DNA of 64,000 nucleotides. Source: Candidatus Danuiimicrobium aquiferis. GTDB taxonomy: Bacteria > Omnitrophota > Omnitrophia > Omnitrophales > Danuiimicrobiaceae. Numbering within the stretch: the stretch's first letter is position 1; every line of letters starts with the position of its first letter. Below the pieces are notes generated by a model. That model ran no database searches, had not been told where the DNA came from, and was given only the letters and a program-made list of their open reading frames with translations. Position numbers and translations under genes: made by a program. The stretch spans positions 46,926 to 110,925 of the forward strand of contig MHFR01000051.1 in NCBI GenBank assembly GCA_001804285.1, read 5' to 3'. This document shows positions 3,728 to 44,740 of the stretch, piece by piece.

Positions 3728-3731
3728 TCTA

Positions 3732-6575: not shown

Positions 6576-6642
6576 CTCAAATCTCTCTCTGATATTGTCA
6601 TTACGTTCTAAAGCTCAATTTAGAAGCAGGTTCATAAAGTCT

Positions 6643-6718: not shown

Positions 6719-6755
6719 TAAGAACACAATTTTATTTGCATGCCCAGCATCTTTT

Positions 6756-7640: not shown

Positions 7641-7665
7641 TCGAAACCTTTTTCTTCGGGAAGGC

Positions 7666-9368: not shown

Positions 9369-9455
9369 ATTTCTTTTCTCCTTATTAAAGGGGCTGTTGT
9401 GTTAACTTAGTCATTAGAGAATGCTCAAGACCGGCAAAAGTTTTTTTCTAAAATT

Positions 9456-9533
9456 GTCATCCCCGCAAGCTTTAAGCGGGGATCCAGCAAATCTAAAATG
9501 AACCTGTGGATTCCCGCTTTCGTGGGAATGACA
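9456..9533. repeat. Family-A repeat element, intergenic rmlA/ugd
   Basis: GTCATCCCCGCAAGCTTTAAGCGGGGATCC ... GGATTCCCGCTTTCGTGGGAATGACA. Confidence 0.8.
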
Positions 9534-9578
9534 CCAAAGCTTTACCTAAATCTAATCATTAACAGCTGTCCCCTTTTG

Positions 9579-10868: not shown

Positions 10869-10878
10869 ATGCCTTCCT

Positions 10879-13197
10879 TTATACTGTTGTGGTTGATTGA
10901 ATAGCGGAGCGATCCGGAACGGTAGTAACCCAATCCCCCAGCCCAGTACCCTGCGATGAGCCTTCAATGGTATCGCTGATTCGAGGATTGGAATAAGAAG
11001 CTCGGTGTCCCGTGTGAAGATTGATAGCCGGGTAAGCTTTTAGGATTAATTCAACAAATATTTCTTTATTAAGCTGTTTGTCGGCGGCTGTTCTTTCTGA
11101 GTTCCGGACATTCAAGCCGAAGTCGAGCCACCAGTCGTGCAGGTCTCGGCGTGCCCGCAATTCCCATTCTTGCCAGTCAGCTTCTGTGGCTTCGTAGCGC
11201 GCATAACTGCCCAAACTCCAGCGGCTATTTAATTTATACATCGCATCCACGGTGATTTGGTTATCTTTGTTATCAATGGTTCCGGATGTTTCACGTGTCT
11301 TAATATATCGATGGCCAATGGCCAAAAAAAGATTCCCCGGCTCAAAAATTGCGTCGATATTATTAGAAGAAACATTTTGAGAAACGAAATCATAACGTGT
11401 ATCCATTCGGAATGAGAGCCAGTCGTACGGCCTTAAAATGATTTCCTGACGGGCTTCCGTGAATTTATCGGCGCCCGTTCTGGAAGTTTCATTGTGCGGG
11501 CCGAATGAAAGGTCAAGGTATGTATTAAAACTGACTAAATCGACTCGCTGCAGCTGCTCCCCGACGACGTGTTTTGTTTGAATCCGGTTTTCCACACCGA
11601 ACGTAATGACATCCTGAAGGCCAAGATTATCTCCGCGACCCGTCGCAACGACATCAGAAATTTTCTTTGTTACGATTTGGTTTCCGCTAAAGGAAACCAG
11701 AGGCCGCATTAAATGACGGAGTTGATTAATTTCGATTCCTCCAAATTTTCCTTTCGTATCCCATGTTCTATAAAATTTCGTATTGAGATCGATTCCCGAT
11801 CCCGCAGAATACCGGTTAGCGGCGGCTTTTGTGACGCGATCTTTCGTGTAAATGTCATCACGCATATAAACGTAGGGAATGAGATTGTAATGCTTCATGA
11901 TTCGAAACGGATAGGAAATTTCTTGATCCGTGTAAAACTGAACGGTGTTGGGACCATCAGGAGCAAATCTCTGTTTTTGGTTAAAATTAACAAAACCTTC
12001 TTCGTTGGTGTAATAAAATCCTGTCCCAAAAAGAGGTTTTCGCAACCAATCAAAAATAATTTCAGGTGTTTTTTCGCCAACGGTAGAGAAATCGTTCGTT
12101 CTTTTTTGGAAGTTAGCAAGTAAACTATATTGCCGTGCATTCCGGACAATGCTGATGAGAGATTTCGGATCAATTTCTTCGCGGTATTCTCCCTCGAAAA
12201 AGTCCTGCAAAAAGCGTTCATCGCTAATTTCGTTCCATTGCACATCAAGTACCGTGAGCGGATCGAGGCGCATCTTATGATTAATGGTGACTCGTCCTCG
12301 ATATTCCTTTGTTTTTTTCGTGTACGGATTCGTTTCTTTTTCATCCGGAGTTTTTTTGTCATGAATTCCGTATAATTTGATCTGTCCGACTCCTGCACGC
12401 TCAAACTTATAATCAAAATCCACGCCCGCACCGAAGCCCCGTTTTTGATAATAGTCTAAATGCGCAGTGCCTTTGATATTCTTATTAATCGAGAAACCCT
12501 TAGAAGTTAAAACGTAAGCGCCAAAGTCATCGGAATAACCCGGTTGAACATTTAACATGGTGTCATGATTGAGCGGCATTTGGAAATAAGGCCACCAAAA
12601 AACCGGCGTTTCTAAAATCCGGAATGTCACGTTTGTTGCGACAATTTTATCATCGGGATAAATGGTTACATTTTTGGCGTGAATATCGTAATGAGGATGG
12701 GACATGTTACAAGACGTGAAATACGCATCGTGGGCTTTAACTTTGCCTTTGTTGATTTGTTCAATTTTCTCGGCGTATCCATACCATGGATATTGATATA
12801 GCCGCGCGTTATCAAACGTTCCCTTTCGGTCATCGAAATCAAAGTAGGCGCTCTCGCCCGAAATCAGACTATCCTTTCCTTGCCTTAGAACCACGTGCCC
12901 TTTTGACCAACCTTCTTTTGTATCCACGTTAATTGAAACATTATCCGCCGTTAGTTCGATATCGTCCTGTGTCACAACGGCATTTCCGACCCCGATTAAC
13001 TTTCGATTTTGCCGATCAAACTGCAAATCGTCGGCAACTGCTTTAATCTGGTCTTGCTCGATTAAAGTTTCCGAATAAGCTTTGACTAAACAAAGAAAAG
13101 CGAAGATGAGTCCGCACAAAAACGCAAGTGCACGATACCACTTACTCTTTTCATTTAACTTCTGATTGATTCTGTCGGCAGAAAAACTCTCACGCAT
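10879..13197 (-). CDS. lptD: LPS-assembly outer-membrane protein LptD (OstA family)
   Basis: An OstA-like N-terminal domain (LIGVGNAVVTQDDIELTADNVSIN ...), plus YFTSCNMSHPHYDIHAKNVTIYPDDKIVATNVTF and a large beta-barrel region. The first ATG is 3 codons after the TTG at 13206. Confidence 0.8.
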   Translation of the reverse strand: MRESFSADRINQKLNEKSKWYRALAFLCGLIFAFLCLVKAYSETLIEQDQIKAVADDLQFDRQNRKLIGVGNAVVTQDDIELTADNVSINVDTKEGWSKGHVVLRQGKDSLISGESAYFDFDDRKGTFDNARLYQYPWYGYAEKIEQINKGKVKAHDAYFTSCNMSHPHYDIHAKNVTIYPDDKIVATNVTFRILETPVFWWPYFQMPLNHDTMLNVQPGYSDDFGAYVLTSKGFSINKNIKGTAHLDYYQKRGFGAGVDFDYKFERAGVGQIKLYGIHDKKTPDEKETNPYTKKTKEYRGRVTINHKMRLDPLTVLDVQWNEISDERFLQDFFEGEYREEIDPKSLISIVRNARQYSLLANFQKRTNDFSTVGEKTPEIIFDWLRKPLFGTGFYYTNEEGFVNFNQKQRFAPDGPNTVQFYTDQEISYPFRIMKHYNLIPYVYMRDDIYTKDRVTKAAANRYSAGSGIDLNTKFYRTWDTKGKFGGIEINQLRHLMRPLVSFSGNQIVTKKISDVVATGRGDNLGLQDVITFGVENRIQTKHVVGEQLQRVDLVSFNTYLDLSFGPHNETSRTGADKFTEARQEIILRPYDWLSFRMDTRYDFVSQNVSSNNIDAIFEPGNLFLAIGHRYIKTRETSGTIDNKDNQITVDAMYKLNSRWSLGSYARYEATEADWQEWELRARRDLHDWWLDFGLNVRNSERTAADKQLNKEIFVELILKAYPAINLHTGHRASYSNPRISDTIEGSSQGTGLGDWVTTVPDRSAIQSTTTV

Positions 13198-14602
13198 ACG
13201 CAACAACCCTATTTCGCCCTTCTTCTTTAGCGCGATAAAGCGCTTGGTCGGCTTTTTGAATCAGTTCATCCATGATCGCCTGCTGATTATTTTCATCGCC
13301 CGATTTTTCCAGATCATCCGGAAACGCACTCGTTCCAATGCTCACCGTCATTTTAATTTCTTCGTCATAAATCCGCAAATGTTTGCGCGCAACCGAAGAC
13401 CGGATACGTTCGGCCAATTCCATGCTTTTACTTTTATCAATTTCGGGAGCGACAATGATGAATTCTTCCCCGCCAAACCGGCCCAACACGTCGACTCGCC
13501 GGATATTTTCGCGAATGACCTGCGCGACCTGCCGCAAAGCTTTATCGCCCACCAGATGACCGAATTTATCATTATAACTTTTGAAATGATCAACGTCTAC
13601 CATTAAAACGGATAATGGGAATTTGTAACGCAAGGCGCGCCCTAATTCTTCTTCAAAACGTTCCATGAAGTGCCGGCGAACAAAAATTTTTGTTAATCCG
13701 TCGAGAATTGAAATTTCTTTGACGGTTTCATAGAGCTGAATTTTCTGAATTTGCAATGCAAGCTGCGATGCCATGATTTCAAACTTGGGAAAATCCGACA
13801 TGTTCCCTCCCTCGATTACCACGAGTGCGATTGGTTTTTGTTTTACGAGGAGTGGAAATATCCAAAGTGGCATTTCGATTTCGAGAGAGCTCTTATCGAG
13901 AGTGCCATGATCTGATTTTTTTTCAAACTTAATGACTTGGGACGACCCTGTTAGAACTTCCAGACAGAGTTTTGCAAATTCGAGATTTTCTTCGTCATTT
14001 AAGCGTTTATGGTTTCCGAAAGAAAAGACATGCCTGACCTGTTCAGAAACTCCTTCTGTATTTTCGGATAAAATGATAGTCCCTGCAGAAAAAGCCACCT
14101 CCGGTGTCATTTTGCGGTCAATCGCCTGTAGTAATTCCGAGAAGCTTAAACAATCATTAAAATCCCGGGCCATTTCGAAAACCTTGATTAAACCGCTCAC
14201 CTGTCTTTCCAGATAGTTCAAGCTTTCAATCCGGGCATCATAGCGATCTTTGATGGCCTGCATTTCATTAATCGTATTTTGCTTTTTTTCCCCGGACCGT
14301 AGTATTGTTTTCTCCCAAATCTTTTGATGCAAGTAATAGGTGCATAACAAGCCGCTGATAGCCACGGGGATTACTAAATAAAAAAGATTCATGGTTTTAA
14401 TTAACGAAATCGCCATTGCCAGTAAAAGCAAATTTGCCACGAATATTAAAAGGGCCATTTGTTTTCGCATCCACAGCACCAGCATGATTAAAAAAAACGG
14501 AGGCAAAAAGAAAAATAGTTTCGAGGGGTCTTTAAAGGCGGCAATTTGAGCCCACATGAGGAAAGCAATCAAGCTCGTTAAAAGACAGATGCGCTTCAAC
14601 AT
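13190..14602 (-). CDS. Membrane-anchored diguanylate cyclase (TM helices - coiled coil - GAF-like - GGDEF)
   Basis: RHFMERFEEELGRALRYKFPLSVLMVDVDHFKSYNDKFGHLVGDKALRQV ... LGRFGGEEFIIVAP contains an intact GGEEF motif. There are N-terminal TM segments. Confidence 0.8.
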   Translation of the reverse strand: MLKRICLLTSLIAFLMWAQIAAFKDPSKLFFFLPPFFLIMLVLWMRKQMALLIFVANLLLLAMAISLIKTMNLFYLVIPVAISGLLCTYYLHQKIWEKTILRSGEKKQNTINEMQAIKDRYDARIESLNYLERQVSGLIKVFEMARDFNDCLSFSELLQAIDRKMTPEVAFSAGTIILSENTEGVSEQVRHVFSFGNHKRLNDEENLEFAKLCLEVLTGSSQVIKFEKKSDHGTLDKSSLEIEMPLWIFPLLVKQKPIALVVIEGGNMSDFPKFEIMASQLALQIQKIQLYETVKEISILDGLTKIFVRRHFMERFEEELGRALRYKFPLSVLMVDVDHFKSYNDKFGHLVGDKALRQVAQVIRENIRRVDVLGRFGGEEFIIVAPEIDKSKSMELAERIRSSVARKHLRIYDEEIKMTVSIGTSAFPDDLEKSGDENNQQAIMDELIQKADQALYRAKEEGRNRVVAYA

Positions 14603-18264: not shown

Positions 18265-19701
18265 ATGGATGTTAAGCTGACACAAAATCAAACCCAGAAG
18301 CTTATACTAATACCCCAGTTACGGCAATTTCTAGAACTCCTTGAGATTCCATCGATTGAGCTAATCCAGAGAATCGAGCAAGAACTGGTCCAGAATCCAA
18401 CGCTTGAAGAAAAAAAGTCAGAAGAACAAATCGAACTTCAGGAATCGTCTAAAGAAGAGGAAATTCCGTCAAATGAAAGAGATGAAACGATGCGTGAATA
18501 TCTCGAGGCCATGGACGCGTCTTCCGAAGCGAATCACAACGACGGCTCACTTCAGGATTTGTCGTTTGCATTACCGGCAGATATTCAGAAAAAACAACTC
18601 TATCGGGAGTCTCTACTCACCAACAATCGATCACTTGCGAATTATTTAGAAGGGCAGTTGGGAGTTCTTGACCTTTCCCCCGATGAGTCTAAAATCGCGA
18701 AAGAAGTTATCGGCAATATTGATGATGAAGGCCGGTTGGTTGCGACCAACGAAGAAATAGCAAAAGCCACTTCTTCGACGGCGGAGATTGTTGAAGAAAT
18801 CATCAAAAAAATTCAGCGATTAGACCCACCGGGGGTGGGCGGAAGGAATCTCCAGGAGACTTTGCTTTTGCAACTGCAAAGAAAATCCGGCGATACATCG
18901 TTAACGCGGACGATTGTCGAAAAATATATGCCGCAGCTTGAAAAAAAACAATTTGATCTGATTGCCAGAAGTCTGTCTGTTTCGGCGGAAAAAGTTAAAG
19001 CGGCCTACCGGCAAATCATTGAATTAGAACCGTATCCTGGCCGCATTTTTTTGCAGGACACCTCTCAGGTGATCGTTCCTGACGCCATCGTTGTTCCCAA
19101 TCCAGAAAATGAGGACGAATTTTTAATTGATGTTACCAATGACTATATTCCCCAGCTTCGGATCAATCCCCTCTACCGTCAAATGTTGAAAGACAAGACC
19201 ACGGATCCGGCGACCCGTCAATTTTTAAGAGAAAAAATTCAGGCAGGGCTCGATCTCATCCGGGCCATTCTGCAGAGGAAATCAACCATTCGTCAAATCA
19301 CAGAAGAGCTTGTTCAGAGGCAAAAGGATTTCTTCTCGCTCGGGTTTTCGCATCTCAGGCCTTTGCGCTTGAAAGATATTTCCGAGAAAATTGGTGTTCA
19401 CGAATCAACGGTGAGCCGGGCCATTCAAAATAAATATATTTCAACTCCGCAAGGGACCATTCCCTACAAAAGTTTCTTTTCGTCAAAAATGGAGTCTGAA
19501 AACGGATCGAATGAGTCTCAAAAAAGCGTGATGGAAAGATTAAAGCATATGATCGCGAGCGAAAATAAGTCAAAGCCTTACAGTGATGCGGAGCTCGTTA
19601 AAATGCTCGATAAGGACGGTATTAAAATTTCAAGAAGGACCGTTGCGAAGTACCGCGATCGATTAAAGCTTTTACCCACCTATTTGAGGAAAGAACGATA
19701 A
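18265..19701 (+). CDS. rpoN: RNA polymerase sigma-54 factor
   Basis: MDVKLTQNQTQKLILIPQLRQFLELLEIPSIELIQRIEQELVQNP is a sigma-54 N-terminal activator-interacting region. The C-terminal RpoN box is RRTVAKYRDRLKL. Confidence 0.9.
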   Translation: MDVKLTQNQTQKLILIPQLRQFLELLEIPSIELIQRIEQELVQNPTLEEKKSEEQIELQESSKEEEIPSNERDETMREYLEAMDASSEANHNDGSLQDLSFALPADIQKKQLYRESLLTNNRSLANYLEGQLGVLDLSPDESKIAKEVIGNIDDEGRLVATNEEIAKATSSTAEIVEEIIKKIQRLDPPGVGGRNLQETLLLQLQRKSGDTSLTRTIVEKYMPQLEKKQFDLIARSLSVSAEKVKAAYRQIIELEPYPGRIFLQDTSQVIVPDAIVVPNPENEDEFLIDVTNDYIPQLRINPLYRQMLKDKTTDPATRQFLREKIQAGLDLIRAILQRKSTIRQITEELVQRQKDFFSLGFSHLRPLRLKDISEKIGVHESTVSRAIQNKYISTPQGTIPYKSFFSSKMESENGSNESQKSVMERLKHMIASENKSKPYSDAELVKMLDKDGIKISRRTVAKYRDRLKLLPTYLRKER

Positions 19702-19960: not shown

Positions 19961-20470
19961 GTGGAACAAAAACAATTTGTTAAAACACTGAATGGTTTGG
20001 CCGGGAATCAAAAGTCCGGATTTACATTAGCCGAACTTTTGGTTGTCACTGTGATTGTTGGAATTTTGGGGATCCTTTCTATTCCGAAGTTTTATGCCCA
20101 AATCGAAAAGGCGAAAATATCTCAGGCTTTGGGTGTTTTATCGGCCATTCAAAAAAACGAGAAAATTTATCGCGCTGAACATGGTTATTACAAAGCATTA
20201 TATGAGATAGCAAGTACCGCAGATTGGGGAGGGATCGGAATGATGGATCCTTCTCCGTTTCTGCTTTCATCGCCCGATGGTGAGTTTAAGTATGAATTCC
20301 GCTTCTTAATGGACTCATATGGATATTTTGCGTTTGCAACACGCACAACGAAAAATGATTATAAAGGATATTCGGGTAAAAGAATTCGGGTTCGGCATTC
20401 TGACGGAAAAGCGGTCTGTAGCGCTGATCAATCTGACCACCCGTTGATTCCATTTTCAGCGTGTTGGTAG
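19961..20470 (+). CDS. Type IV pilin / pseudopilin paralog 1 (prepilin-type N-terminal cleavage/methylation domain)
   Basis: The ~20-aa leader ends ...NQKSG|FTLAELLVVTVIVGILGILSIPKF, a class III signal with Glu at +5. The C-terminal motif is CSADQSDHPLIPFSAC. Start is a GTG. Confidence 0.75.
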   Translation: MEQKQFVKTLNGLAGNQKSGFTLAELLVVTVIVGILGILSIPKFYAQIEKAKISQALGVLSAIQKNEKIYRAEHGYYKALYEIASTADWGGIGMMDPSPFLLSSPDGEFKYEFRFLMDSYGYFAFATRTTKNDYKGYSGKRIRVRHSDGKAVCSADQSDHPLIPFSACW

Positions 20471-20489: not shown

Positions 20490-21002
20490 TTGACAGTGAA
20501 AAAAAATATATTGTACACCGTATTAAAAAACAAAAAAAAAGCGGTGTCAGGCTTTACACTTGCCGAACTTTTAATTGTTACTGTGATTGTGGGAATTTTA
20601 GGGATTATTTCTATGCCGAAGTTTTATGCCCAAAAGGAAACGGCGAAAATATCGGAAGCTTTAAGTATTTTATCAGCAATTCGTCAAAATGAGCGAGCTT
20701 ATTTTCTTGAAAAGGGCTCTTACAAAATAATAGTTCCTAACGCAAATGCGACAGATTGGGGGGAGATCGGAATGCTGGATCCTTCTCCGGATCCGCCCGC
20801 AGGTGAGTTTGACTATGAATTCAAATCCGGGGAGGAGGGGATATACTATGCGTTCGCAACACGCACGGCAAACAATAATTATATGGGATATGCTGGTAAA
20901 TTCGTTCGGGTTCGGGATAGCGATGGAAAAGCTGTCTGTTCTGCTGATACCGATCACCCTTTGATTTCCGATTCAGCGTGTTTGCAGCCTTGGCCGAGTT
21001 GA
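20490..21002 (+). CDS. Type IV pilin paralog 2
   Basis: ...KKKAVSG|FTLAELLIVTVIVGILGIISMPKFYAQKE, with C-terminal CSADTDHPLISDSAC. GAGGTGA RBS at ~20484; the true start is probably the GTG at ~20496. Confidence 0.75.
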   Translation: MTVKKNILYTVLKNKKKAVSGFTLAELLIVTVIVGILGIISMPKFYAQKETAKISEALSILSAIRQNERAYFLEKGSYKIIVPNANATDWGEIGMLDPSPDPPAGEFDYEFKSGEEGIYYAFATRTANNNYMGYAGKFVRVRDSDGKAVCSADTDHPLISDSACLQPWPS

Positions 21003-21016: not shown

Positions 21017-21562
21017 ATGACAATGAAAGAAAACATATTGCAGGTTTTGTTGAAAAATAGAAAACAACGACTGTCGGGTTTTACACTTGCCGAACTTCTA
21101 ATCGTCATTGTAATTTTGGGCGTATTGGGAGCGATTGCGCTTCCTAAATATTTTCCGCAATCCGAAAAAAGTCGCCTATCCGAGTCATTTGAAATTTTAG
21201 GTGCCATTCGAAAAGGACAGGAAGCATACCGATTAACAACCCCTGGATTTACTTATTTGAGTATGGGCGATTGCAATAGCCCTGCCAACGCTCCGACTTC
21301 CCAAGGTAATAGTGCCAATGCGAACCAGTGGGCGCGTTTAGGAATGGACCGCCCTGCCGGTCAGTTTTTTGATTTCTGCACGAGAAGTGATTCTCCGTAT
21401 ACCACGTTTGTTGCTTATGCGTACAGAAAATCATCAGGGCCCTTTGGGTCTACTTATGGGACAAAATATGTCGGAATTACACAAACTGGTTTTTTTTGCG
21501 GTGATCATCCATTGATTCCGACTTCAGTTTGCCAAAGCGGTACTTGCAGTGCTTGTCCTTAA
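21017..21562 (+). CDS. Type IV pilin paralog 3
   Basis: ...RKQRLSG|FTLAELLIVIVILGVLGAIALPKYF, with C-terminal CGDHPLIPTSVCQSGTCSAC. GAGGTGA RBS; the true start is probably the second ATG at ~21023. Confidence 0.75.
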   Translation: MTMKENILQVLLKNRKQRLSGFTLAELLIVIVILGVLGAIALPKYFPQSEKSRLSESFEILGAIRKGQEAYRLTTPGFTYLSMGDCNSPANAPTSQGNSANANQWARLGMDRPAGQFFDFCTRSDSPYTTFVAYAYRKSSGPFGSTYGTKYVGITQTGFFCGDHPLIPTSVCQSGTCSACP

Positions 21563-21606: not shown

Positions 21607-22116
21607 ATGAAATATTTTTTAAACGGAACCAATCAAAAACTAAGGCGAACCAATTTATTTTCACCTCGGAGTTTTCACTTTGCCCGCATTTCACATTCCG
21701 GTTTTTCTTTGACAGAACTGCTTATTACCGTGACTGTGCTCGGTATTTTAGCCGCTGTATCGGTTCCTGTTTATTTGAATCACCTGGAAAAAGCGCGCAT
21801 TTCTGAAGCGATTCAATTGTTGAACCGGGTTCACATAGGAAAACAGCAATTTGCGGCTATTAGGGGTGCAACAGCAACAACATGGGCTCAAGTTGGAATG
21901 GCTACCCCCACTCCGGTGCCCCCGTGTTGGAGTTATGCAACTCAAAATATCCCCGGCATAGGAATAGTATTTCGCGCAACTCTTAATAATTCTCAAAGCA
22001 AATATAACGGGAACAACATTATACTTTGTAGAACCGGTAAGTTTTGTGGTACCCATCCCCTCATCCCGGGTTCACTATGTGTCAATTCCAGTTGTTCTGA
22101 TTGTACTGGCTGTTAG
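21607..22116 (+). CDS. Type IV pilin paralog 4 (33-aa leader)
   Basis: ...ARISHSG|FSLTELLITVTVLGILAAVSVPVYL, with C-terminal CGTHPLIPGSLCVNSSCSDCTGC. AAGGA RBS. Confidence 0.7.
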   Translation: MKYFLNGTNQKLRRTNLFSPRSFHFARISHSGFSLTELLITVTVLGILAAVSVPVYLNHLEKARISEAIQLLNRVHIGKQQFAAIRGATATTWAQVGMATPTPVPPCWSYATQNIPGIGIVFRATLNNSQSKYNGNNIILCRTGKFCGTHPLIPGSLCVNSSCSDCTGC

Positions 22117-22400
22117 CCTTCAGAAGGTATGATTGGCATCTGGGCGCATCTTCATAACTCATTTCATATCAATAAGTTACATTACAAATATTTGCATTTA
22201 CCACCTTGTTTTTTCATATAAGTGGGTTATACTTTTAATAGGAGTAGCGGTGTAAGGTTTTTTGAGAAGAACAAATTTTTTTTGCCCACTTTTTTAAGAC
22301 TTTTTTAGAAAGACGAAATTAGGAGAAAGATGAGGAGCTAATGGTGAAGACCGGACAGTGGTTCAGTGAAAAACAGAGATATATAAAAAATGTCGGCGGA

Positions 22401-22811
22401 ATGAAGTCTGGATTTTCACTTGTAGAAGTGATTATTAGTATGATGGTCATTGCGATCGTTGCCCTGGGAGCATTTGCTGCTATGAACTATTCTAAAAAAT
22501 CCTCTAAGGATGCTGAAGAAAAAATGATCGCTGTTTCTATCGTTGAGAGAAAACTGAATGAGTTTCGAACTCTCAACGTGTTAGATCTTAACGTCTATAA
22601 CGATTTCCAAAATACAGTAACCCTCGATACCAATACCATCAATGGTGACATTTCATCTTTTCTGAATAATGGGCTCATTCAGGACAGGATTGTGCAGCCA
22701 AATCCCCCAAACGACCCGGCCTATAAAGAGGTGACTGTACAAGTGACATGGCTGGATAGATTGAATTTCTCTCATGAGGTGACTATGACCGTTACTCTTT
22801 TAGCAGCGTAA
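22401..22811 (+). CDS. Minor (pseudo)pilin with short leader
   Basis: MKSG|FSLVEVIISMMVIAIVALGAF is a prepilin-type N-terminus. The internal start is preferred over the ORF-track 22341. Confidence 0.65.
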   Translation: MKSGFSLVEVIISMMVIAIVALGAFAAMNYSKKSSKDAEEKMIAVSIVERKLNEFRTLNVLDLNVYNDFQNTVTLDTNTINGDISSFLNNGLIQDRIVQPNPPNDPAYKEVTVQVTWLDRLNFSHEVTMTVTLLAA

Positions 22812-22929
22812 AAGTTTTCTAATTTTAGGTTTGAAAGGTATTGAGATGGAACTGATTCATCGCGAAAAAAATAATGAAAGCCGTAAATGCGAAGTGAAAC
22901 CCGCACGGGTTATTAGAAGCTTTCATTTG

Positions 22930-23532
22930 ATGCGGGGGTTTACTCTTCTTGAGCTGATTATCGCGATGATATTCGTCTCCATCATTGTGCTGGGAAGCTC
23001 CGCCCTTCAATTTTCCGTTGTTCAGCAAGCGAACAAAGTCGGACTTGAAATGAGAGTCCGGCAACGGATGGATTTCGTTTTTCGACACATGGAACTCATG
23101 TTGGCCAACGCCACAAATGTGAGCGTTACTTATAGTCCTGCCGTTGAAAGTCCCACAGGGTTCAATACCTCAACCTTGTGTTTTACCTATGCAATAGACG
23201 GTATCAACTATTGTTATAAATATTGGTATAACTATGCGGACACTTATGGGAGTACGTCTAATTCTATTCGCCTTGATTCCCCGACCAGATGGATAACCAT
23301 TCTGTATTCTACCGGTGGTAGCACCCCTGATCAAAAGGCTCAAACACGGATTGTGCCGGGACCGGGGACAAGAGGCTTTGAGTTATCACCAGACAAGAAA
23401 ATTGTTTATGTTAGTTTGAAAGGACAGATTGCTATGGGCAAAGTTAATAAGCTCATAACCATGCCAAGCTCATATCGTTACATTGACATGCCGCCAATAC
23501 GCAAATCGATTTATATGCCGATGTCGTCTTAG
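22930..23532 (+). CDS. Minor pilin (PilW/FimT-like)
   Basis: MRG|FTLLELIIAMIFVSIIVLGSSALQF. The ORF-track start at 22831 would give a 36-aa leader, so the true start is uncertain. Confidence 0.6.
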   Translation: MRGFTLLELIIAMIFVSIIVLGSSALQFSVVQQANKVGLEMRVRQRMDFVFRHMELMLANATNVSVTYSPAVESPTGFNTSTLCFTYAIDGINYCYKYWYNYADTYGSTSNSIRLDSPTRWITILYSTGGSTPDQKAQTRIVPGPGTRGFELSPDKKIVYVSLKGQIAMGKVNKLITMPSSYRYIDMPPIRKSIYMPMSS

Positions 23533-23551
23533 AAAGGAGATTGAGAACTGT

Positions 23552-26500
23552 ATGGCAAAGGGACAAGAAGTACTCATCAATCAAAATCCGGCAATCATGA
23601 AAGCGCGCTCCAAGCGTAATAGCAGGAATGCTAATACTTTTGGATTTGCTTTATTGTATGCGATTTTCTTGGCGATAGCGGTTGAAATAGGGATTATCGG
23701 AAGTCTGTACACGATGGCCCGGCATCAAAGAGAGGTGCAGACGGATCTCAATAGAGTTCAAATGCGCATGTTGAACGTTTCTGCCGTGAATGAGGTATTG
23801 AGAAATTTTAAAGAATATTTAGGAACACATCCGAATTTTCCGCAACATGATGTCAATTCAGAGGTGCATGATTTTGATAATCCCTTATCCTCTTGGTATA
23901 ACAATGCAAGTACGGGATTTAAAAATCGTTATTCTCATGTATCCGGATTTTTCGATTTAGACTTATCCAATTTAAAAGTTCGGAAAGTTGCGGAGTCCGA
24001 CGGAGGAGGTGTTTGGTGGCGTGAATATGAGATTTCATCGCGTGTTAAGAGCCTATGGGTACCCATGCAATCTGAGATTAAACAAAAAGTTAGAATTTCG
24101 AACGGCAAATTGTTTGATTTTTCTATTTTTTCGAATGTGGATTTAGAAATTCAGGGCGGCCCGAGTTTTGATCTTCAGGGGCCTATTTTTTCTAACGGTA
24201 ATATTTATTTGATGAACAATCCGGGAAGTCTATTAAAACTACTGCGTCCGAGCAACATTGATAGTCCGGAAAGCCGAGAACCCTATATCATGAGAGCTGC
24301 CGGTAACATCTATTTTGGCCAGAATCGGGCCTTTGCGCCTAATTATCTTTTAACTAATGCCGGATATAGCCAGAACGTCCCTTCAGAGTATACGGACCCG
24401 CTGAACAATGGACTGGAAATTAACGTTGCGATGGATTTAAGTTCATATTTACCGGTTTTCCGTTTTGCTCCCTTTATTTACCACTTTAATAATGGAACTA
24501 GTTTTAAAACTGCTTCGGGAGGAACTCCGGGAAATTCTCCCGAAGTTTGTGTGCAAAACAATCAAAATTGCGTATGGGTGGATACCGGCGGAACATTTAC
24601 TAAGCTGGTGCCTTATCATCCCCCAATGAAATCAATTACATGGTTTTATCCGTCGTATGGCTCGAGGTATTACACAGTGGTCGCGGGGTCCCAATATGGA
24701 GAACCGAGTTCTCAAGGTTTTATTTCTATGTCAAATGCGGTTGATATAAATAATTATCCGGGAATTGACCCCGCTTGGACCCCCGCTGCCCCGACAACTT
24801 ATTCACCCCCTGTTAATCCAAGCTGGCAGAATAGTTTATTTAACGGTTCTGGCGGACAATCAGATGTTATTGCTCAAGGAATGCCCACCAGATCGATCCC
24901 AATTGGTGATCCGGTCAATCCAAGTGGTGCGCATTTATTGATAGAACCCATCATGGATTCTGACACAACGGCAATAAAAGAAAGTAAATTTCAACAGAAG
25001 GCAATCGATTTCGGAAGCGGAATCGGCTTTAATATTCATTGTCTTAAATCAGAAATACTAGAACCGATATACGTAGCGATATACGATTGTGCAGACGCTC
25101 AATATATTTCGCCTGATTTCCAAGCCTTGATAGATCTGAATGTGGCCCAGTATCAAAATACAGCTTCATTTTTTGATTTTCGGATAGCGAGTCCCCGAAC
25201 ATATATTTCTATAGATATCAATAAGCTCTTACAATTTTATCCCCAAGCGAAAATGATCTATGTGAGGTTGTTGAATGGTCTTATGGCGCCTTTTTCTAAG
25301 CCCCCCCGAGCGCTTAGGATAATTAATGCCAAGCGCCTTCCCAAAACCGGCCTCACGATTGCAACAAATGGAAGAATTTATATTCAAGGTAACTATAATA
25401 CTTATTTGTATGAAAATGCTGATGGTTCTTCAAGAATGGCAGCCGATGGTACAACACTTTGTCAAGATATTCCGGCTGAAGACAGTGATTCAGGTAATGC
25501 GGCTCCCTGCTATTGTACCGATACGGAATGGGATAATGATGCATGTGCCCCGCCGCCCGCCGCCATTTTTAGCGACAGTTTTGTTGCTTTGTCTTCTAAT
25601 TGGTCTGATACTTATACATCTACTATGCCGCCGGTAGAAGGTCGTCTTGCCTCTGATACGATAATCAATGTCGGAATCGCAACGGGTATCCGCAGATCGC
25701 AACTTCTTAATTCGACTTATTTCTCGACTTCGTGCGTAGCAGATATGAGCAATTGTGAAGCCAATGGTACTTGGCTTAGTCCAGATGATTCAACGACCTA
25801 TTATAGAGGCTCGGATAAGAGCTATTATTATGTGAATAAATGTTCTGGGAAGTATTTAACTGCCTATGCTACTTCTAAGGCTAAAGCGGGTGGTGATACG
25901 ACTTCAACCAAATTGCCTCCGCCGCCCGTAACCGATTTGAACGATCCTGCTCCGGAGTGTGAGGCATACAATGCGAAAACCGCTACTGAAAAATATAATG
26001 CGGACTCTTGGCGATTACCTATTTTCACCGATATGATCCGTCAACCAGGCGGCGAGTATAGTTGGAAAGATCACAAGTCGGACTCCGCACCAGTGCCGGT
26101 GCGGGCGTTTAAAGGAGTTTATTTCCGGAGATTGAATTCTTCGAGAATATTTTTTGATGGCACTATATGTGTTTTATCCGGTCCTTGTCCGGGAGAAAAT
26201 ACTATCTGCCCGGATGGAACAGTTTGTCAAGGAACGCGGGGCATGATAAATAACTCGCGATGTACTCTGGTGAGTGCTGAGACGGGTGCCTATAGCTGTA
26301 ATTCTTGTGAAACACCTCCCGCTTGCACTTGTTATCAGGGACAGGCGTGTGACCCAAATGCGGCTAACTTTGATCCAACGGTCGTGTATGGCGGGGACTA
26401 TTATTACAATTTATATACTGTTGAATATAGCGGCGGGCTTGAAAATGTTGTTAACCTTCAGGAGAATTGGGCGGGAAAATCATTACGATTTTTGGGGACG

Positions 26501-26677
26501 ACGGCAATCACATGGTATGCAGACGGATTGAATAGCTATCCGTACAAGACAAGTTACTATGTGGCACCGAATCGAAAGTTCAGATATAACGGCCAACGAA
26601 TGGTTATGGATCCGCCGCCCGGAACTCCGGGTACGTTTGCGATGATAAAAAAAGAATCGACCGAGAAAATCTATTAG
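23552..26677 (+). CDS. Large PilX-N-domain protein (1042 aa), putative pilus tip/minor-pilin adhesin with a Cys-rich C-terminal region
   Basis: AAAGGAGA RBS at ~23533-23540, then the ATG at 23552. The N-terminus KRNSRNANTFGFALLYAIFLAIAVEIGIIG is a PilX-like hydrophobic N-domain. The C-terminal third carries many Cys in short spacings (CYCTDTEWDNDAC, CPGENTICPDGTVCQG, CNSCETPPACTCYQGQAC). No PilY1 beta-propeller signature was recognised. Confidence 0.6.
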   Translation: MAKGQEVLINQNPAIMKARSKRNSRNANTFGFALLYAIFLAIAVEIGIIGSLYTMARHQREVQTDLNRVQMRMLNVSAVNEVLRNFKEYLGTHPNFPQHDVNSEVHDFDNPLSSWYNNASTGFKNRYSHVSGFFDLDLSNLKVRKVAESDGGGVWWREYEISSRVKSLWVPMQSEIKQKVRISNGKLFDFSIFSNVDLEIQGGPSFDLQGPIFSNGNIYLMNNPGSLLKLLRPSNIDSPESREPYIMRAAGNIYFGQNRAFAPNYLLTNAGYSQNVPSEYTDPLNNGLEINVAMDLSSYLPVFRFAPFIYHFNNGTSFKTASGGTPGNSPEVCVQNNQNCVWVDTGGTFTKLVPYHPPMKSITWFYPSYGSRYYTVVAGSQYGEPSSQGFISMSNAVDINNYPGIDPAWTPAAPTTYSPPVNPSWQNSLFNGSGGQSDVIAQGMPTRSIPIGDPVNPSGAHLLIEPIMDSDTTAIKESKFQQKAIDFGSGIGFNIHCLKSEILEPIYVAIYDCADAQYISPDFQALIDLNVAQYQNTASFFDFRIASPRTYISIDINKLLQFYPQAKMIYVRLLNGLMAPFSKPPRALRIINAKRLPKTGLTIATNGRIYIQGNYNTYLYENADGSSRMAADGTTLCQDIPAEDSDSGNAAPCYCTDTEWDNDACAPPPAAIFSDSFVALSSNWSDTYTSTMPPVEGRLASDTIINVGIATGIRRSQLLNSTYFSTSCVADMSNCEANGTWLSPDDSTTYYRGSDKSYYYVNKCSGKYLTAYATSKAKAGGDTTSTKLPPPPVTDLNDPAPECEAYNAKTATEKYNADSWRLPIFTDMIRQPGGEYSWKDHKSDSAPVPVRAFKGVYFRRLNSSRIFFDGTICVLSGPCPGENTICPDGTVCQGTRGMINNSRCTLVSAETGAYSCNSCETPPACTCYQGQACDPNAANFDPTVVYGGDYYYNLYTVEYSGGLENVVNLQENWAGKSLRFLGTTAITWYADGLNSYPYKTSYYVAPNRKFRYNGQRMVMDPPPGTPGTFAMIKKESTEKIY

Positions 26678-26743: not shown

Positions 26744-27289
26744 ATGAAAAATGACGTATTAAAAAAATGCATCAAAAAAAAAGAACATCCCGGCAAAGGC
26801 GTGACGCTCACAGAACTGCTGGTAGTGGTGGTGATCGTGGCCATTGGGTCAAGTATGTTTTTACCAAAAATTGATAAGGGGATTGAGAATCAAAAAGCGC
26901 TCAACGCGCTTAATACCCTTCGAACGATTTCCCAGGCGCGGCGGATGTATGTTATGGAAGTGAGCGGACTTTTGACCACGAACGTGCTGCCATCGGGGAA
27001 CCCTATGTGTGTTGCCGGTACTTCAGCAATTGATGAATTAGTTAACAAGGGGTATTTAGATCGAAATGATTTCGCACCCGGTTTTACTTATACTTTTGGT
27101 AATACTAGTGCCTTTTTTGTCAGCAATAGAGATGTTATCGCAAGAACTCCGGAAGGAAGGCAGATTAGTTTTGAAAGTCAGACATGGTGTGCTGGTAATC
27201 CCGGAGGCATCGGAGGAGATAGCTATATCAAAGATAGTGATGGCTACATTGGCCCCACAACAGGATTAGGCTCCGACCAAGATTACTAA
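26744..27289 (+). CDS. Pilin-like protein (prepilin-type N-terminus, G|V variant)
   Basis: ...HPGKG|VTLTELLVVVVIVAIGSSMFLPKI. Length is 181 aa. Confidence 0.55.
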   Translation: MKNDVLKKCIKKKEHPGKGVTLTELLVVVVIVAIGSSMFLPKIDKGIENQKALNALNTLRTISQARRMYVMEVSGLLTTNVLPSGNPMCVAGTSAIDELVNKGYLDRNDFAPGFTYTFGNTSAFFVSNRDVIARTPEGRQISFESQTWCAGNPGGIGGDSYIKDSDGYIGPTTGLGSDQDY

Positions 27290-27344: not shown

Positions 27345-27417
27345 AGCTGGCGGTCGGAGTCGAACCGACGACCTGCTGTTTACGAAACAGCTGCTCTGCC
27401 AACTGAGCTACACCAGC
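27345..27417 (-). tRNA. tRNA-Thr (anticodon CGT)
   Basis: The reverse complement is GCTGGTGTAGCTCAGTTGGCAGAGCAGCTGTTTCGTAAACAGCAGGTCGTCGGTTCGACTCCGACCGCCAGCT. The acceptor stem is 7 bp with one G-U pair. The anticodon stem GCTGT/ACAGC encloses loop TTCGTAA, and the T-loop is GGTTCGACTCC. No CCA is encoded, and a T-run follows. Confidence 0.85.
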
Positions 27418-33742: not shown

Positions 33743-34603
33743 TTAAACTCCTGCGGTATTTTTTATTATACCACTTTCGATAATGATCTTTTCAAATTCC
33801 TTAATCCGTTCTGCATTTCCCCGTTTCTTCGCACCCTCGAGGACAATCTGACATTTCCGCCTAAGTTCGGCAAACGTTAATTCAACATGGGCTTGAGTGA
33901 GAATTCCCGACTGCAACATTTTCATCATCGCATAAACCCGGTAGCGGTCTAGTGTGTCAATTGTTCGGGAGAGCTGATCTTCATGTCCACCATATTTAAT
34001 CACGAATGCTTCGTCAATTAATCCGACTTGATATTTTGCACTGATCCGGAGCCACAGATCATAATCTTCACAGGCCGGAAACGATTCGTCAAAAAGGCCG
34101 GTTTCATCGAAAATGGTGCGGTGCATCATCACGGCCGAAGGACTAATCACGCACAAAGAAAGACATTTTTCGTAAATCCAGCCGCCAAATTTTTGATGTT
34201 TTTTCATCGGGTTGACGCGTTTCCCGTTTCTGATCCAAATTTCTTCCGTCTGGCAAATCAGGCAGTCCGGGTTCTTTTTAAAAAACCGGATTTGTGCATC
34301 GATCTTTCCGGATTTCCATTCATCATCCGAATCCAGAAATGAAATTAACTTGGCCCTCGAATTCTGGATGCCTAAATTGCGCGCGGCTGCAGGTCCTTTA
34401 TTGGGTTGATGCAGATATTTGATTTCAGAATGCTGTTTAGATAACCTGTCAATCATCGCAGCGGTTTCATCCGTAGAACCATCATCAACAATAATAAGCT
34501 CGAAAGATGAGCCTTCTTGCGTGAATACAGAATTGATTGCGCGCCGCAGAACGTGCGCGCGATTGTAAGTGGGAATGATTACGCTAACGGATGGAAAGGC
34601 CAT
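33743..34603 (-). CDS. Glycosyltransferase family 2
   Basis: MAFPSVSVIIPTYNRAHVLRRAINSVFTQEGSSFELIIVDDGSTDET. The internal ATG is preferred because the ORF-track start would overlap lpxL. Confidence 0.8.
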   Translation of the reverse strand: MAFPSVSVIIPTYNRAHVLRRAINSVFTQEGSSFELIIVDDGSTDETAAMIDRLSKQHSEIKYLHQPNKGPAAARNLGIQNSRAKLISFLDSDDEWKSGKIDAQIRFFKKNPDCLICQTEEIWIRNGKRVNPMKKHQKFGGWIYEKCLSLCVISPSAVMMHRTIFDETGLFDESFPACEDYDLWLRISAKYQVGLIDEAFVIKYGGHEDQLSRTIDTLDRYRVYAMMKMLQSGILTQAHVELTFAELRRKCQIVLEGAKKRGNAERIKEFEKIIIESGIIKNTAGV

Positions 34604-34608
34604 ATGAA

Positions 34609-35550
34609 TCAGATATCTTTGGGCCGTTTTTTCCACCGACGGTGGTACCAAGCCCATTGCCACGGATATTGTTTAATAAGATCTTCAAAAAAGTGATTTA
34701 TTTTAAGCGTTGTTTCGTATTCCCAATTTTCGGATGATTGATCGACCCGAAATTCGGGACTGATGACAAGCCTATATTTTCCGGGTTTTATTCGCACACA
34801 GGAAATCGCAACGATCGGCGCTTGACACTTTACCGCCAACCGAACCGGAAATGTGGTAGTGGCTGTCGGAACATTAAAGAATGGAATCCACTTTCCGTCT
34901 GAGCCCGCCCATTGGTCAATCAAAAGCGCGATCACTTCGTTGTTTTTAATTTTCCGCATAATTACCCGGATGGATTCGTTTTTATCCGCGTACTTAAGAC
35001 CGGTTGAGTGGCGCAGATGTTCAATCCACCGATACAAATAACGATTCCGGAAACTTTTACCGATCACCGTACAAGTAAATTTTAGCAAATGTGGAATAAA
35101 GGCGGTATATTCCCACGAGCCCAAATGTGCCATGACAAACACAACGCCCTTTCCTTCCAAAAGCCCGTTTGACAAATGTTCTCCGCCGGAAAGCGTAAAA
35201 CGATCTTTCTGATCTGCAATGGTTTTTTCCGTGCGCATGAATTCCATGACGGATGTTATTAAATTCTGAAAAGATTTTCGCGCGATTCGTTTTTTCTCGT
35301 TGGCCGGGATCGTGTTGCCGTACGCAAGGTCTAAATTGTAAAGCGCAATCTTTCGTCTCTTCCCGGCAACAAAATAAGCAAGATCACCGATCCGGCAAGA
35401 AATCCATGACGCCCATTCAATCGGAATCACACCAATTCCAAACGCGACGAGCCGGATAACGCAATAAATCAAAAATTCAAGCGGCGGCAAATCAAGCCTC
35501 CGCTTCGGCTGATTTTGTTTTTCAATAAATTTTGGTAAGCTGTTTGACAT
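34609..35550 (-). CDS. Lipid A biosynthesis lauroyl/myristoyl acyltransferase (LpxL/HtrB family)
   Basis: There is an N-terminal TM segment. The family pattern IALYNLDLAYGN ... VMAHLGSWEY ... is present. Confidence 0.75.
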   Translation of the reverse strand: MSNSLPKFIEKQNQPKRRLDLPPLEFLIYCVIRLVAFGIGVIPIEWASWISCRIGDLAYFVAGKRRKIALYNLDLAYGNTIPANEKKRIARKSFQNLITSVMEFMRTEKTIADQKDRFTLSGGEHLSNGLLEGKGVVFVMAHLGSWEYTAFIPHLLKFTCTVIGKSFRNRYLYRWIEHLRHSTGLKYADKNESIRVIMRKIKNNEVIALLIDQWAGSDGKWIPFFNVPTATTTFPVRLAVKCQAPIVAISCVRIKPGKYRLVISPEFRVDQSSENWEYETTLKINHFFEDLIKQYPWQWAWYHRRWKKRPKDI

Positions 35551-36860: not shown

Positions 36861-36890
36861 ATTTTGATCGATGTTTATTTACAAGTAATT

Positions 36891-36964
36891 TGCGCCCGCC
36901 GAGGATCGAACTCGGAACCTACAGGTTCGAAGCCTGTCACTCTATCCAATTGAGCTACGGGCGC
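36891..36964 (-). tRNA. tRNA-Arg (anticodon TCG)
   Basis: The reverse complement is GCGCCCGTAGCTCAATTGGATAGAGTGACAGGCTTCGAACCTGTAGGTTCCGAGTTCGATCCTCGGCGGGCGCA. The acceptor is GCGCCCG/CGGGCGC. The anticodon stem ACAGG/CCTGT encloses loop CTTCGAA. Confidence 0.85.
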
Positions 36965-37907
36965 ACTAACGGTAATACTTTACTAATGCTTAGGTTATCC
37001 CGCCATAGAATTTTATTTGCAAGATAACCTTTATCGGCCGTCCTTTAGGGCGGGCGCTTTGAAATCTTTTATTTGTAACCCTCAACGGGTTCTTATATAT
37101 GTAAGTGATTGGGTTGTCATGACTTCTTATCAATGAATTAGATTTATTTAAATGTAAGTCATGGCTATCCAGCCGAGCTACAATCTGACATAACCACAAC
37201 CTCTAATTGCCGTTATTTTAACAATTTACAACGATTTATCAAACATTTCTTTCCCCTGAATTTCTTTCCTTGTAAAAAGCAAGGAACTTGCGGATCGTCT
37301 CATTTTGAAAAGCCTTATACTTGTCCGCCACTATTGCGTTGGCGGATCAGCCTTTGGCTGAAAGCGGGGATCCAAAAAATAATTCAAATTCAAATACTGG
37401 ATTTCTGCCTACTGCCTGCGGGAATCTTCCTCTTGCCTTTTCCAATACTAATTTTCGGACGGGTATCTGACATCTATCTTAAAACAACTTACATGATGGT
37501 TAAATGCCGCGTCGAGATCAAGAAATCGCCTTCGCATTTCAAAGCAATCAGATGTCTGTTGCGTTGGCGTGAAATAATTCAGGCATGCATTGTTATCATC
37601 GCCGGACTCAAGATTTTATAACGACTGTAGAAATCAAACTGCGCCAATTTCTAAATACGATTTGGGGCCACGATTTGGGGAAATAAGTATCTTTTTGAAG
37701 GTTTCAGAGGTACTATTGTCTTGCAAAGTAACGCGAGAAGGCGAGGTTTTGCCGCGCGATTGGCGAGCAGACCATTCTGCAAACGGTTTTCATCTTTGTC
37801 TTGAGCCTCTTGCTTGGGTCATTCTGATTTTGTTTAAACTGCGAGTTTTATTCCTGATTTATGAGAATTCTTGCAATGATAATATCGAGATTAAGAAAGG
37901 ACACGGC

Positions 37908-39908: not shown

Positions 39909-40493
39909 TTACTCATTTTGAGAGGCTTTAATCGCAATGGCCAGGTAATTAGCCACTGCTTTTTTCTTCAAATCGGCCGTTAACTGATTTCTGAAAGAAT
40001 CTGAGCCTTCATATTGCGTTCCGATTTTTTTATAATATTTTTGTAGGTCCTCATAACTCTTATCCTCGATGACGTTGATCTCTTTTCCGTCAGTATCATA
40101 CTGCCAAAGCGCTGCCTGAACGAAACCGTTTTCATCAACCGCACATTTTATGTAATAAGATCCTGCGCCACCCAAGTATGTAAATGCAGTCGAAAGCTCG
40201 TTCGGCGAGACAAAATACTTGCAATCTTTTCTATCGGCCAGAGAACCGTCCGCATACAGCGGAACAGGAATTTGTTCCCCGTTTCGCACTTTACCGGTCT
40301 TGATTGCAATAAAATTATTAATTTTTTGCGCAAGAATAGACTCTATGTTTCGATTTTCGGCGCTGTCCCGAGGTGCGGCCACTTCTTTAATTTCATTTCG
40401 TCCCAATAAAGGATTTTTCGCAAACGCTTCGGGCAACACGCATATTTGCGCTATTCCCGCAATCAGCATTATTTTAAATAAAACATTTTTCAT
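39909..40493 (-). CDS. Hypothetical secreted protein (signal peptide)
   Basis: MKNVLFKIMLIAGIAQICVLPEAFA looks like a signal peptide. No family was recognised. It is flanked by family-B repeat fragments. Confidence 0.5.
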   Translation of the reverse strand: MKNVLFKIMLIAGIAQICVLPEAFAKNPLLGRNEIKEVAAPRDSAENRNIESILAQKINNFIAIKTGKVRNGEQIPVPLYADGSLADRKDCKYFVSPNELSTAFTYLGGAGSYYIKCAVDENGFVQAALWQYDTDGKEINVIEDKSYEDLQKYYKKIGTQYEGSDSFRNQLTADLKKKAVANYLAIAIKASQNE

Positions 40494-40531
40494 TATTTCT
40501 CCCTTTTTCGCCCTGATTTAACAACGGCGGG

Positions 40532-43350: not shown

Positions 43351-43364
43351 CCTGACCGATTTTT

Positions 43365-43492: not shown

Positions 43493-43501
43493 CAACTCAA
43501 G

Positions 43502-44725: not shown

Positions 44726-44740
44726 CGCAATTTAGTTGAT

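Follow-up and report, generated by a model that had tools for sequence, protein, structure and literature searches.

We analysed a 64,000-nucleotide stretch of contig MHFR01000051.1 (the window) from the Omnitrophota bacterium Candidatus Danuiimicrobium aquiferis (GCA_001804285.1), in which one very large gene lies within a cluster of type IV pilin genes on the forward strand. The open reading frame (ORF) spans 23483-26677 (+). Translation from the ATG at 23552, which follows an AAAGGAG ribosome-binding site, gives a protein of 1041 residues; the original prediction, made from the sequence alone, gave 1042 and had counted the stop codon. GenBank carries the identical 1041-residue product as 'hypothetical protein A3G33_03425' (OGW79403.1), UniRef names it 'Uncharacterized protein', and those named relatives that were checked are likewise hypothetical or uncharacterized in public records. 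We propose, with a probability of about 0.75, that the large protein is the cap subunit of a type IV filament, a GspK/PilX-class ('PilK') protein of ComZ/PilX-solenoid build that is enlarged by two Omnitrophota insertions. The pilin cluster is arranged as follows.

19961-20470, 20490-21002, 21017-21562 and 21607-22116 (+): four tandem pilin genes, recognized by N_methyl matches and a motif scan
22341-22811 (+): GspI/PilV-like minor pilin with GFSLVEV (NCBIfam GspI, E = 3.7e-7; PilV, E = 6.6e-7; both below cutoff)
22831-23532 (+): GspJ/PilW-like minor pilin with GFTLLEL (weak matches to prepilin peptidase-dependent protein and GspJ)
23552-26677 (+): the large gene
26744-27289 (+): downstream pilin with GVTLTEL and glutamate at position +5 (Glu5) (weak N_methyl, TIGR02532 and GspG-type matches)

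The spacer between the GspJ/PilW-like gene and the large gene is 19 nucleotides, and the downstream pilin gene starts 66 nucleotides past the large gene. The order of two minor pilins before and another pilin after the large gene had been read correctly, and the cluster is bigger than first described, with four more pilins upstream. Each of these four has the motif G|F(T/S)L(A/T)EL with Glu5 and GspG/PilA-type NCBIfam matches under the cutoff of each model, and we take them as candidates for major or auxiliary pilins. Two of them (21017-21562 and 21607-22116) have Cys-rich tails (CQSGTCSACP; CVNSSCSDCTGC) with 6-7 cysteines each; in the remaining pair the number is the usual 2. No separate PilX/GspK gene is found within the pilin cluster of the window. 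As the large gene directly follows the GspI-/GspJ-like pair and no other candidate for the next subunit is present in the cluster, the large protein itself should be the GspK/PilX-class subunit. The PilY1-type operon position assigned to it earlier is not borne out, because there is no intervening PilX after the GspJ-like gene and the slot is that of GspK/PilX. We regard the structural class together with this slot as highly probable.

The named genomic loci that encode long relatives of the large protein all come from Omnitrophota metagenome-assembled genomes (MAGs), several with at least two copies, and related loci share a gene order. The large gene directly follows GspI-/GspJ-class genes in L001, L005, L006, L010, L011, L014 and L016, as it does in the window. 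Related loci that are long enough for context show several GFTLxEL pilins, a gene of about 150 residues with GFS(L/M)xEV in the GspI-like position, a gene of 180-270 residues with G(L/M)TLLEL and then the large protein, sometimes in 2-3 tandem copies; in several loci a pilin of about 180 residues comes next. The G(L/M)TLLEL gene is immediately 5' of the large gene in L001, L005, L006, L010, L014 and L016, and the gene of about 180 residues, with G(V/I)T(L/M)LE, is 3' of it in L006 and L011. In L011 and L014 genes for a secretin, a T2SSE ATPase and a T2SSF platform protein (Pfam) come directly before the pilin block, and in L016 the upstream ORFs match these genes in size.

The large protein is laid out as follows, with AlphaFold2 (AF2) as the source of the predicted structural elements and the predicted local distance difference test (pLDDT) as the measure of confidence.

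23552-23644 (+): leader, residues 1-31, ending in Gly31, with the predicted prepilin-peptidase site G|FALLY
23636-23827 (+): predicted long N-terminal α-helix (α1), residues 29-92, hydrophobic in its first half (~32-53), from AF2, the hydropathy maximum and PilX_N/GspK matches in relatives
23957-24103 (+): predicted three-stranded antiparallel sheet of the pilin-like domain, residues 136-184 (AF2)
24107-24337 (+): β-solenoid start, residues 186-262, the most conserved block of the family, with the local match to the HpsA hidden Markov model (HMM) and pLDDT 76-91
24338-24901 (+): insertion region 1, residues ~263-450, mostly missing in short forms, with low to moderate AF2 confidence
24902-25705 (+): central solenoid core, residues 451-718, kept in long and short forms, pLDDT mostly 80-96, with collinear HpsA matches in relatives
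25706-26398 (+): Cys-rich insertion 2, residues 719-949, with 14 of the 22 cysteines, missing in short forms, with a conserved scaffold and hypervariable loops
26399-26614 (+): conserved C-terminal end of the solenoid, residues 950-1021, with the invariant or near-invariant columns YSGGLEN-NLQENW-G and Y-AP-R-F-Y
26615-26677 (+): C-terminal segment with the AF2 strand 1029-1040, corresponding to strand 554-564 in a short form, to the topology of ComZ (PMC6561018) and to the cis β-strand addition model (PMC13533445)

The N-terminus is of prepilin type. The strongest hydrophobic segment of the protein is at residues ~30-53, right after Gly31. A cleavable Sec-type pattern is absent from the N-terminus, which has instead G|FALLY followed by the hydrophobic helix reaching residue 92. 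The earlier reading of a PilX-like hydrophobic domain in place of a signal peptide thus holds, and PilX_N (PF14341) matches 15 of 47 shorter relatives. Here and below, long forms are the sequences of a 33-sequence alignment (A2) and short or medium forms are another 47 sequences (A3). The glycine at -1 is present in 31 of the 33 long forms. Glutamate at +5 is found in none of the long and short forms examined, whereas all seven neighboring pilins of the window have it in the motif scan. A missing Glu5 is a recognized mark of the terminal GspK/PilX-class subunit (bioRxiv 10.64898/2026.02.12.705559). The mature protein is acidic, with an isoelectric point (pI) of 5.4.

The AF2 model was built from the 33-sequence alignment and has a mean pLDDT of 72.5 and a predicted template modeling score (pTM) of 0.72. 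It consists of the helix 29-92, three antiparallel strands in 136-184, many short strands of β-solenoid type and a terminal 12-residue strand, 1029-1040. The α1 helix and antiparallel sheet make up the pilin fold of the GspK/PilX class, and this domain, together with an ice-binding-type triangular β-solenoid, is the combination that characterizes the ComZ class. In both the long-form and the short-form model the elements come in the same order: three-stranded sheet, solenoid, and terminal strand after PPGTP. We propose that in the folded protein the C-terminal strand pairs with the N-terminal pilin sheet and completes it. At the solenoid start the signature is LFDFSIFSN-DLEI-GP-F-LQGPIFSNGNIYL, and the central core shows HLLIEP, LRIINA-LP-GLTIATNGRIYIQGNYN, a conserved C655...C665 loop and PPAAIFSDSF-LS-NW. 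Confidence is low in patches in insertion region 1 (pLDDT 44-62 for residues 318-388).

Comparison with solved structures places ComZ best. The structural-match figures are 15.1 for ComZ, 9.4-10.3 for ice-binding proteins, 6.1-8.1 for tapirins, 5.7 for GspK, 5.6 for GspI, 5.1 for meningococcal PilX, 5.1 for XcpX and 5.0 for FimU. Three ComZ chains also rank first with Foldseek against the PDB, although with weak scores of E = 6e-3 to 9.5e-3 and probability 0.2-0.35; the Cys-rich insert has no match there. Neither a PilY1/PilC propeller (PF05567) nor a vWA domain nor a Ca-binding site appears in any sequence or structure match list, so that the absence of PilY1 hallmarks noted at the outset stands at the level of both sequence and fold, and no standard PilY1 propeller is recovered. 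Sequence and profile searches of the PDB give no match beyond weak ones to Rtt109 and disintegrin (E > 0.4), which we put down to chance. We also considered a pectate-lyase-type enzyme and discarded it: the solenoid matches ice-binding proteins and tapirins best, instead of lyases, and the protein matches no catalytic family.

Sequence comparison gives the family its extent. No Pfam model matches the large protein, PilX_N included, and none covers the body of the family. Its sole NCBIfam match is a local one to HpsA, 20.3 bits over residues 192-223, at the motif LFDFSIFSN...GPIFSNGNIYL. Word-indexed homologue searches, with a single sequence and with a profile, find 5-6 relatives. With an exhaustive HMMER search the number rises to 519 cluster representatives (E <= 1e-3). 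Those at E <= 1e-30 number 34 and are nearly all long forms of 900-1330 residues, and many others are short (550-600 residues). The two alignments match each other from the N- to the C-terminus (hhalign of A2 against A3, probability 100%, E = 4.6e-71). What they share is a core of about 570 residues. It begins with the N-terminal G|F-A-L hydrophobic helix, continues with LFDF-IF-N-DLEI-GP...GPIFSNGNIYL, HLLIEP, LR-VNG-LP-GLT-A-G-YIQGDYN and PPAAIFSDSF-LS-W, and closes with SGG-EN...E-W-G and Y-P-R-F-Y...PPGTP, then the terminal strand. This core is an old and widespread family, and a Limisphaerales (Verrucomicrobiota) MAG encodes one of the short forms. The segments that the large protein has in addition to the short forms are mainly residues ~277-442, 618-639 and 719-949.

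The relatives link the family to known models more clearly than the large protein does. NCBIfam HpsA (NF038301) matches 43 of the 47 short or medium forms and 23 of the 33 long forms (66 of 80 overall), and NCBIfam GspK (NF037980) matches 10 and 6 of them, respectively, all under the curated cutoffs. The HpsA matches are collinear across relatives at three conserved motifs; HMM positions 1327-1397, for example, match the segment of relative P0004 that is equivalent to residues 950-1021. An NCBIfam scan of nine proteins for a GspK-matching region gives HpsA matches alone. The locus of one distant relative, P0005, encodes on the opposite strand a second large protein of 590 residues (L003, 660-2432 (-)), with a Pfam DUF7305 match and a PilX_N-like N-terminus, which comes after its own set of pilin-like genes.

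The large protein has 22 cysteines, and 18 of them fall within residues 637-933. Cysteine accounts for 6.1% of this region and, across 33 other window genes, for 0.84% (binomial P = 1.5e-10), which agrees with the C-terminal crowding seen at first; all four of the Cys motifs quoted then are present. This region is, however, not a discrete domain that folds with confidence in the model. It corresponds to a lineage-specific solenoid insertion at ~719-949, and pLDDT is below 50 for residues 795-815 and 871-937, the latter being the densest Cys stretch. Of the outcome named beforehand as a refutation, low confidence together with poor conservation of the Cys-rich part, half applies, and the Cys pattern is conserved in part. 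Ten positions between 497 and 919 are shared by 16 or more of the 33 long forms: Cys497 and Cys513 (22-23), Cys655 and Cys665 (30-31), Cys728 and Cys735 (29-31), Cys879 (21), Cys904 (27), Cys916 (16) and Cys919 (29). The remaining cysteines are lineage-specific and lie in hypervariable loops that are poorly predicted by AlphaFold. Two more Cys columns, conserved in 29-30 relatives, are both substituted in the large protein (LSPD, TTYY), which is consistent with a lost pair.

Realignment of residues 640-960 shows a scaffold, C..EWD...C.PPAAIFSDSF; S.C; G.YYVN; LP.C; RIPIF.D; P..GV.F, and between its elements loops that are very variable in length and sequence. The whole region, insert included, is acidic (pI 4.5). 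We expect insertion 2 to be held by disulfides between the conserved cysteines. An independent, mobile Cys-rich domain was rejected, as the 719-949 insert is matched alone in none of the best 150 matches of the exhaustive search. In some homologues (P0003, P0015, P0012) one loop of the Cys-rich region contains an insert of dockerin/EF-hand-like DxNGDGxVD repeats; the large protein has no such insert, and Pfam EF-hand models match one of the 33 long forms. Single Omnitrophota MAGs have 2-3 tandem or nearby paralogues (L010, 6896-13915 and 17833-21324; L007, 1758-7516). These paralogues are 66-80% identical in the first 50 residues, 38-69% at the C-terminus and 8-30% in the inserts. The conserved ends would be where the pilin module lies, and the divergent part would be an exposed head.

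The closest known structure is that of ComZ from Thermus thermophilus (PDB entry 6qvi), in which a GspK-like pilin domain carries a triangular solenoid of about 380 residues with an ice-binding protein as its closest fold (PMC6561018). Its gene order is pilA1-pilA2-pilA3-comZ-pilA4, and the authors argue for a tip subunit (PMC6561018). Both proteins combine a GspK-like pilin domain, a triangular β-solenoid and a final strand after the solenoid, both are encoded after GspI/GspJ-like pilins and before a pilin, and standard sequence motifs fail to recognize either as a pilin. The two have no detectable sequence similarity, however, and the link is by fold only. The large protein is also twice as long, has two extra insertions and 22 cysteines, is acidic, and comes from a mesophilic aquifer Omnitrophota MAG. 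ComZ binds DNA and is essential for transformation (PMC6561018), and one alternative is that the large protein is likewise a DNA receptor on the tip of a competence pilus. We find this improbable, since the mature protein and the Cys-rich insert region are both acidic, those parts of the window that were examined show no competence genes, and hypervariable loops with tandem paralogues suit varied ligands better than DNA.

GspK and PilX ('PilK') share with the large protein the operon slot after I and J, the glycine at -1 without Glu5, and HMM matches in relatives; GspK differs in that its insertion is α-helical and at a different point of the sheet. A true GspK equivalent would cap a type II secretion pseudopilus within the periplasm and push or select secreted substrates. 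Such a function is favored by the related loci ordered secretin, GspE, GspF, G-like pilins, I, J and large protein, by the relatives that match the GspK model, and by a head so large that it might not get through a secretin. On the other hand, the window encodes a filament machinery that includes PilM, PilN and PilO:

50975-52681 (-): T2SSE/MshEN ATPase, PilB-like (Pfam)
49401-50366 (-): ParA/MinD-like ATPase (Pfam)
48137-49420 (-): PilM (Pfam)
47513-48094 (-): PilN (Pfam)
46654-47502 (-): PilO (Pfam)
44860-46620 (-): secretin with STN and TPR domains (Pfam)
43502-44725 (-): T2SSF platform protein (Pfam)
42507-42956 (-): GspG-like pilin
42158-42535 (-): PilX_N-like ORF of 125 residues, from the ORF reading
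41770-42357 (-): pilin-like ORF
40532-41770 (-): N_methyl protein of 412 residues

This minus-strand cluster (39909-52681) is a complete type IV filament machinery and could assemble the pilins of the forward-strand cluster. It includes a second, small set of pseudopilins, the PilX_N-like ORF among them. No PilT-like retraction ATPase is seen among the window ORFs scanned. Type IVa pili are reported to be near-universal and expressed in Omnitrophota, which reportedly rely on type IV pili for attachment (PMC10066038). It is also hard to see why a piston would need a hypervariable head, braced by disulfides and present as tandem paralogues, and the secretion reading is about as improbable as that of a DNA receptor.

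At the level of sequence, the nearest relatives of known kind are the cyanobacterial PilX proteins, including HpsA or PilX-EPS (NF038301, IPR049774). In all cyanobacterial PilX homologues the pilin fold is reported to be interrupted by an ice-binding-like solenoid between the penultimate and last strands, and one expanded subfamily, with extra undefined domains, is homologous to HpsA (bioRxiv 10.64898/2026.02.12.705559). The architecture reported for them is the one that we propose for the large protein. The phylum differs, and the Cys-rich insertions are common to the large protein and 32 other aligned long forms and missing in the short forms. An HpsA-like component that binds extracellular polysaccharide, or helps to export it, would fit the collinear similarity to the HpsA model, the sugar-nucleotide and glycosyltransferase genes elsewhere in the window and the proposed binding of PilX-EPS to a track of the cell's own polysaccharide (bioRxiv 10.64898/2026.02.12.705559). 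However, the 20.3 bits of the large protein are far under the HpsA equivalog cutoff of 400 bits, which even the best relative (E = 1.5e-27) does not reach, so that it is not an HpsA orthologue. No hps-type glycosyltransferase genes stand beside the pilin cluster, and the function of HpsA itself is defined by genetics only. Such a role is quite unlikely.

PilK-class subunits need a final β-strand, which is supplied in trans by PilY1/PilC or in cis by a strand of their own, and several systems have a large insertion ahead of the cis strand (PMC13533445). Proteobacterial PilX is small and depends on PilY1 in trans (PMC13533445); for cyanobacteria it is proposed that the PilX solenoid replaces the PilY1 'plug' (bioRxiv 10.64898/2026.02.12.705559). 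PilY1/PilC is likely the functional counterpart of the large protein as a bulky distal tip head, and the pilin cluster has no PilY1 gene. The two are not homologous: the large protein is without β-propeller, vWA domain or Ca-binding site, and has its own pilin anchor in place of a signal peptide. CpaL/TadG and other PilK homologues, likened here by description only (PMC13533445), also have an N-terminal pilin-like domain, a large middle and a C-terminal sheet-completing strand, although their middle domain is of another fold and they belong to another filament clade (Tad). A PilY1/PilC analogue, or a separate PilY1-like adhesin module joined to a PilX anchor, gains something from the size of the protein, its minor-pilin operon, the lack of another obvious tip adhesin nearby and the 'plug' role proposed for PilX solenoids, but it has little chance, given the missing propeller, vWA and Ca-site matches, a gene that occupies the GspK/PilX slot and does not follow a PilX, conserved N- and C-terminal modules that form a single ancient family of about 570 residues, and a closest structural match, ComZ, whose solenoid is inserted inside the pilin fold and makes a two-protein fusion unlikely. 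From the original prediction of a tip adhesin or a fusion of PilX with a PilY1 analogue, the pilus-tip component, the PilX-type N-terminus and a plausible PilY1-like tip-head role can be kept. The fusion cannot, as the body is an ice-binding-type β-solenoid within a pilin framework, as in ComZ, and the core is one family.

For a solenoid-bearing cap subunit we suggest the following mode of action. The prepilin-type N-terminus, with Gly-1 and no Glu5, and the long α1 helix would anchor the protein in the inner membrane. Its small pilin sheet would then dock on the GspI-like/GspJ-like pair encoded upstream and nucleate the filament, which would put the protein at the distal tip. The ice-binding-type triangular solenoid would sit before the last pilin strand, and the extreme C-terminal strand, past the conserved PPGTP, would return to complete the pilin sheet in cis (residues 1029-1040). 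The solenoid would form a bulky tip head, bearing in Omnitrophota the two lineage-specific insertions. Insertion 2, braced by its predicted conserved disulfides, would offer the hypervariable acidic loops as a ligand-binding face for adhesion to a host cell or surface.

Adhesion as the function has, in our judgment, an even chance. It is favored because Omnitrophota are reported to use type IV pili for attachment (PMC10066038), because the head is hypervariable and present as paralogues, and because the acidic insert argues against a ComZ-like DNA receptor. The likeness of the solenoid to tapirins (Caldicellulosiruptor) and to DUF3494 ice-binding proteins says nothing on the ligand. These proteins are themselves without a pilin anchor, and the large protein has no Pfam or NCBIfam match to either family; a tapirin model matches one of the 47 short or medium relatives (E = 1.8e-5).

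Several observations weigh against the cap-subunit assignment. The large protein itself reaches neither the GspK nor the PilX_N model, and the link goes via relatives and fold. The stretch with the most closely spaced cysteines is also one of low model confidence. The width of a head of about 110 kDa may exceed that of a secretin channel. In addition, a small PilX_N-like gene (42158-42535) belongs to the machinery of the window itself, and the large protein may therefore cap this filament or another.

The class itself is known (ComZ in 2019, cyanobacterial PilX/HpsA in 2026), and the large protein is not a new system; a type IV pilus specialist would not be greatly surprised by it. What is new is the unannotated, enlarged and Cys-rich Omnitrophota form, whose family numbers at least 34 long-form cluster representatives. 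Placement in the ComZ/PilX-solenoid class would give this family a role, that of a filament cap with a tip head. It would also extend an architecture so far known from Thermus and recently from cyanobacteria to Omnitrophota and, via the short forms, at least to Verrucomicrobiota. This fits a more general idea, in which a lineage that lacks PilY1 makes the tip head part of its PilK-class subunit. For Omnitrophota, a phylum believed to attach to other cells by type IV pili, the variable Cys-rich head offers a concrete candidate attachment determinant. More tentatively, and with the odds against it, the long forms may be exchangeable, disulfide-braced tip heads whose hypervariable acidic loops choose the host cell or surface, with tandem paralogues giving one machine several specificities. 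If so, the large protein would be a host-recognition determinant of an uncultured, ultra-small and possibly parasitic nanobacterial phylum.

Other genes of the window touch the filament or the envelope. Directly upstream of the PilB-like ATPase gene is an ORF of 3664 residues, 52972-63966 (-), with a weak CarboxypepD_reg-like match as its sole Pfam match, and over it the GC content rises from ~0.43 to ~0.50. Giant, poorly annotated ORFs are a reported trait of Omnitrophota. A PMT_2-family glycosyltransferase is encoded at 896-2881 (-) and another lies inside the pilin cluster of L001, 2615-4129 (-), which hints at pilin glycosylation. Sugar-nucleotide and envelope genes are found at 3008-10967 (-) and 33743-35550 (-). 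The former kind includes GDP-mannose dehydratase-type epimerases, RmlD, UDP-glucose dehydrogenase and GT2 glycosyltransferases. Genes for LptD (10879-13206) and a lipid A acyltransferase confirm a diderm envelope.

Immediately upstream of the pilin cluster is rpoN (sigma-54), 18265-19701 (+). Matches to the sigma-54 promoter consensus, sought downstream of rpoN and in the window, are not above chance, and sigma-70 promoter matches in the window are not above those in shuffled sequences. Terminator-like sites number 16, compared with 7.3 in shuffles. A tRNA-Thr(CGU) gene, 27345-27417 (-), comes right after the last pilin gene, and a tRNA-Arg(UCG) gene lies further downstream at 36890-36965 (-).

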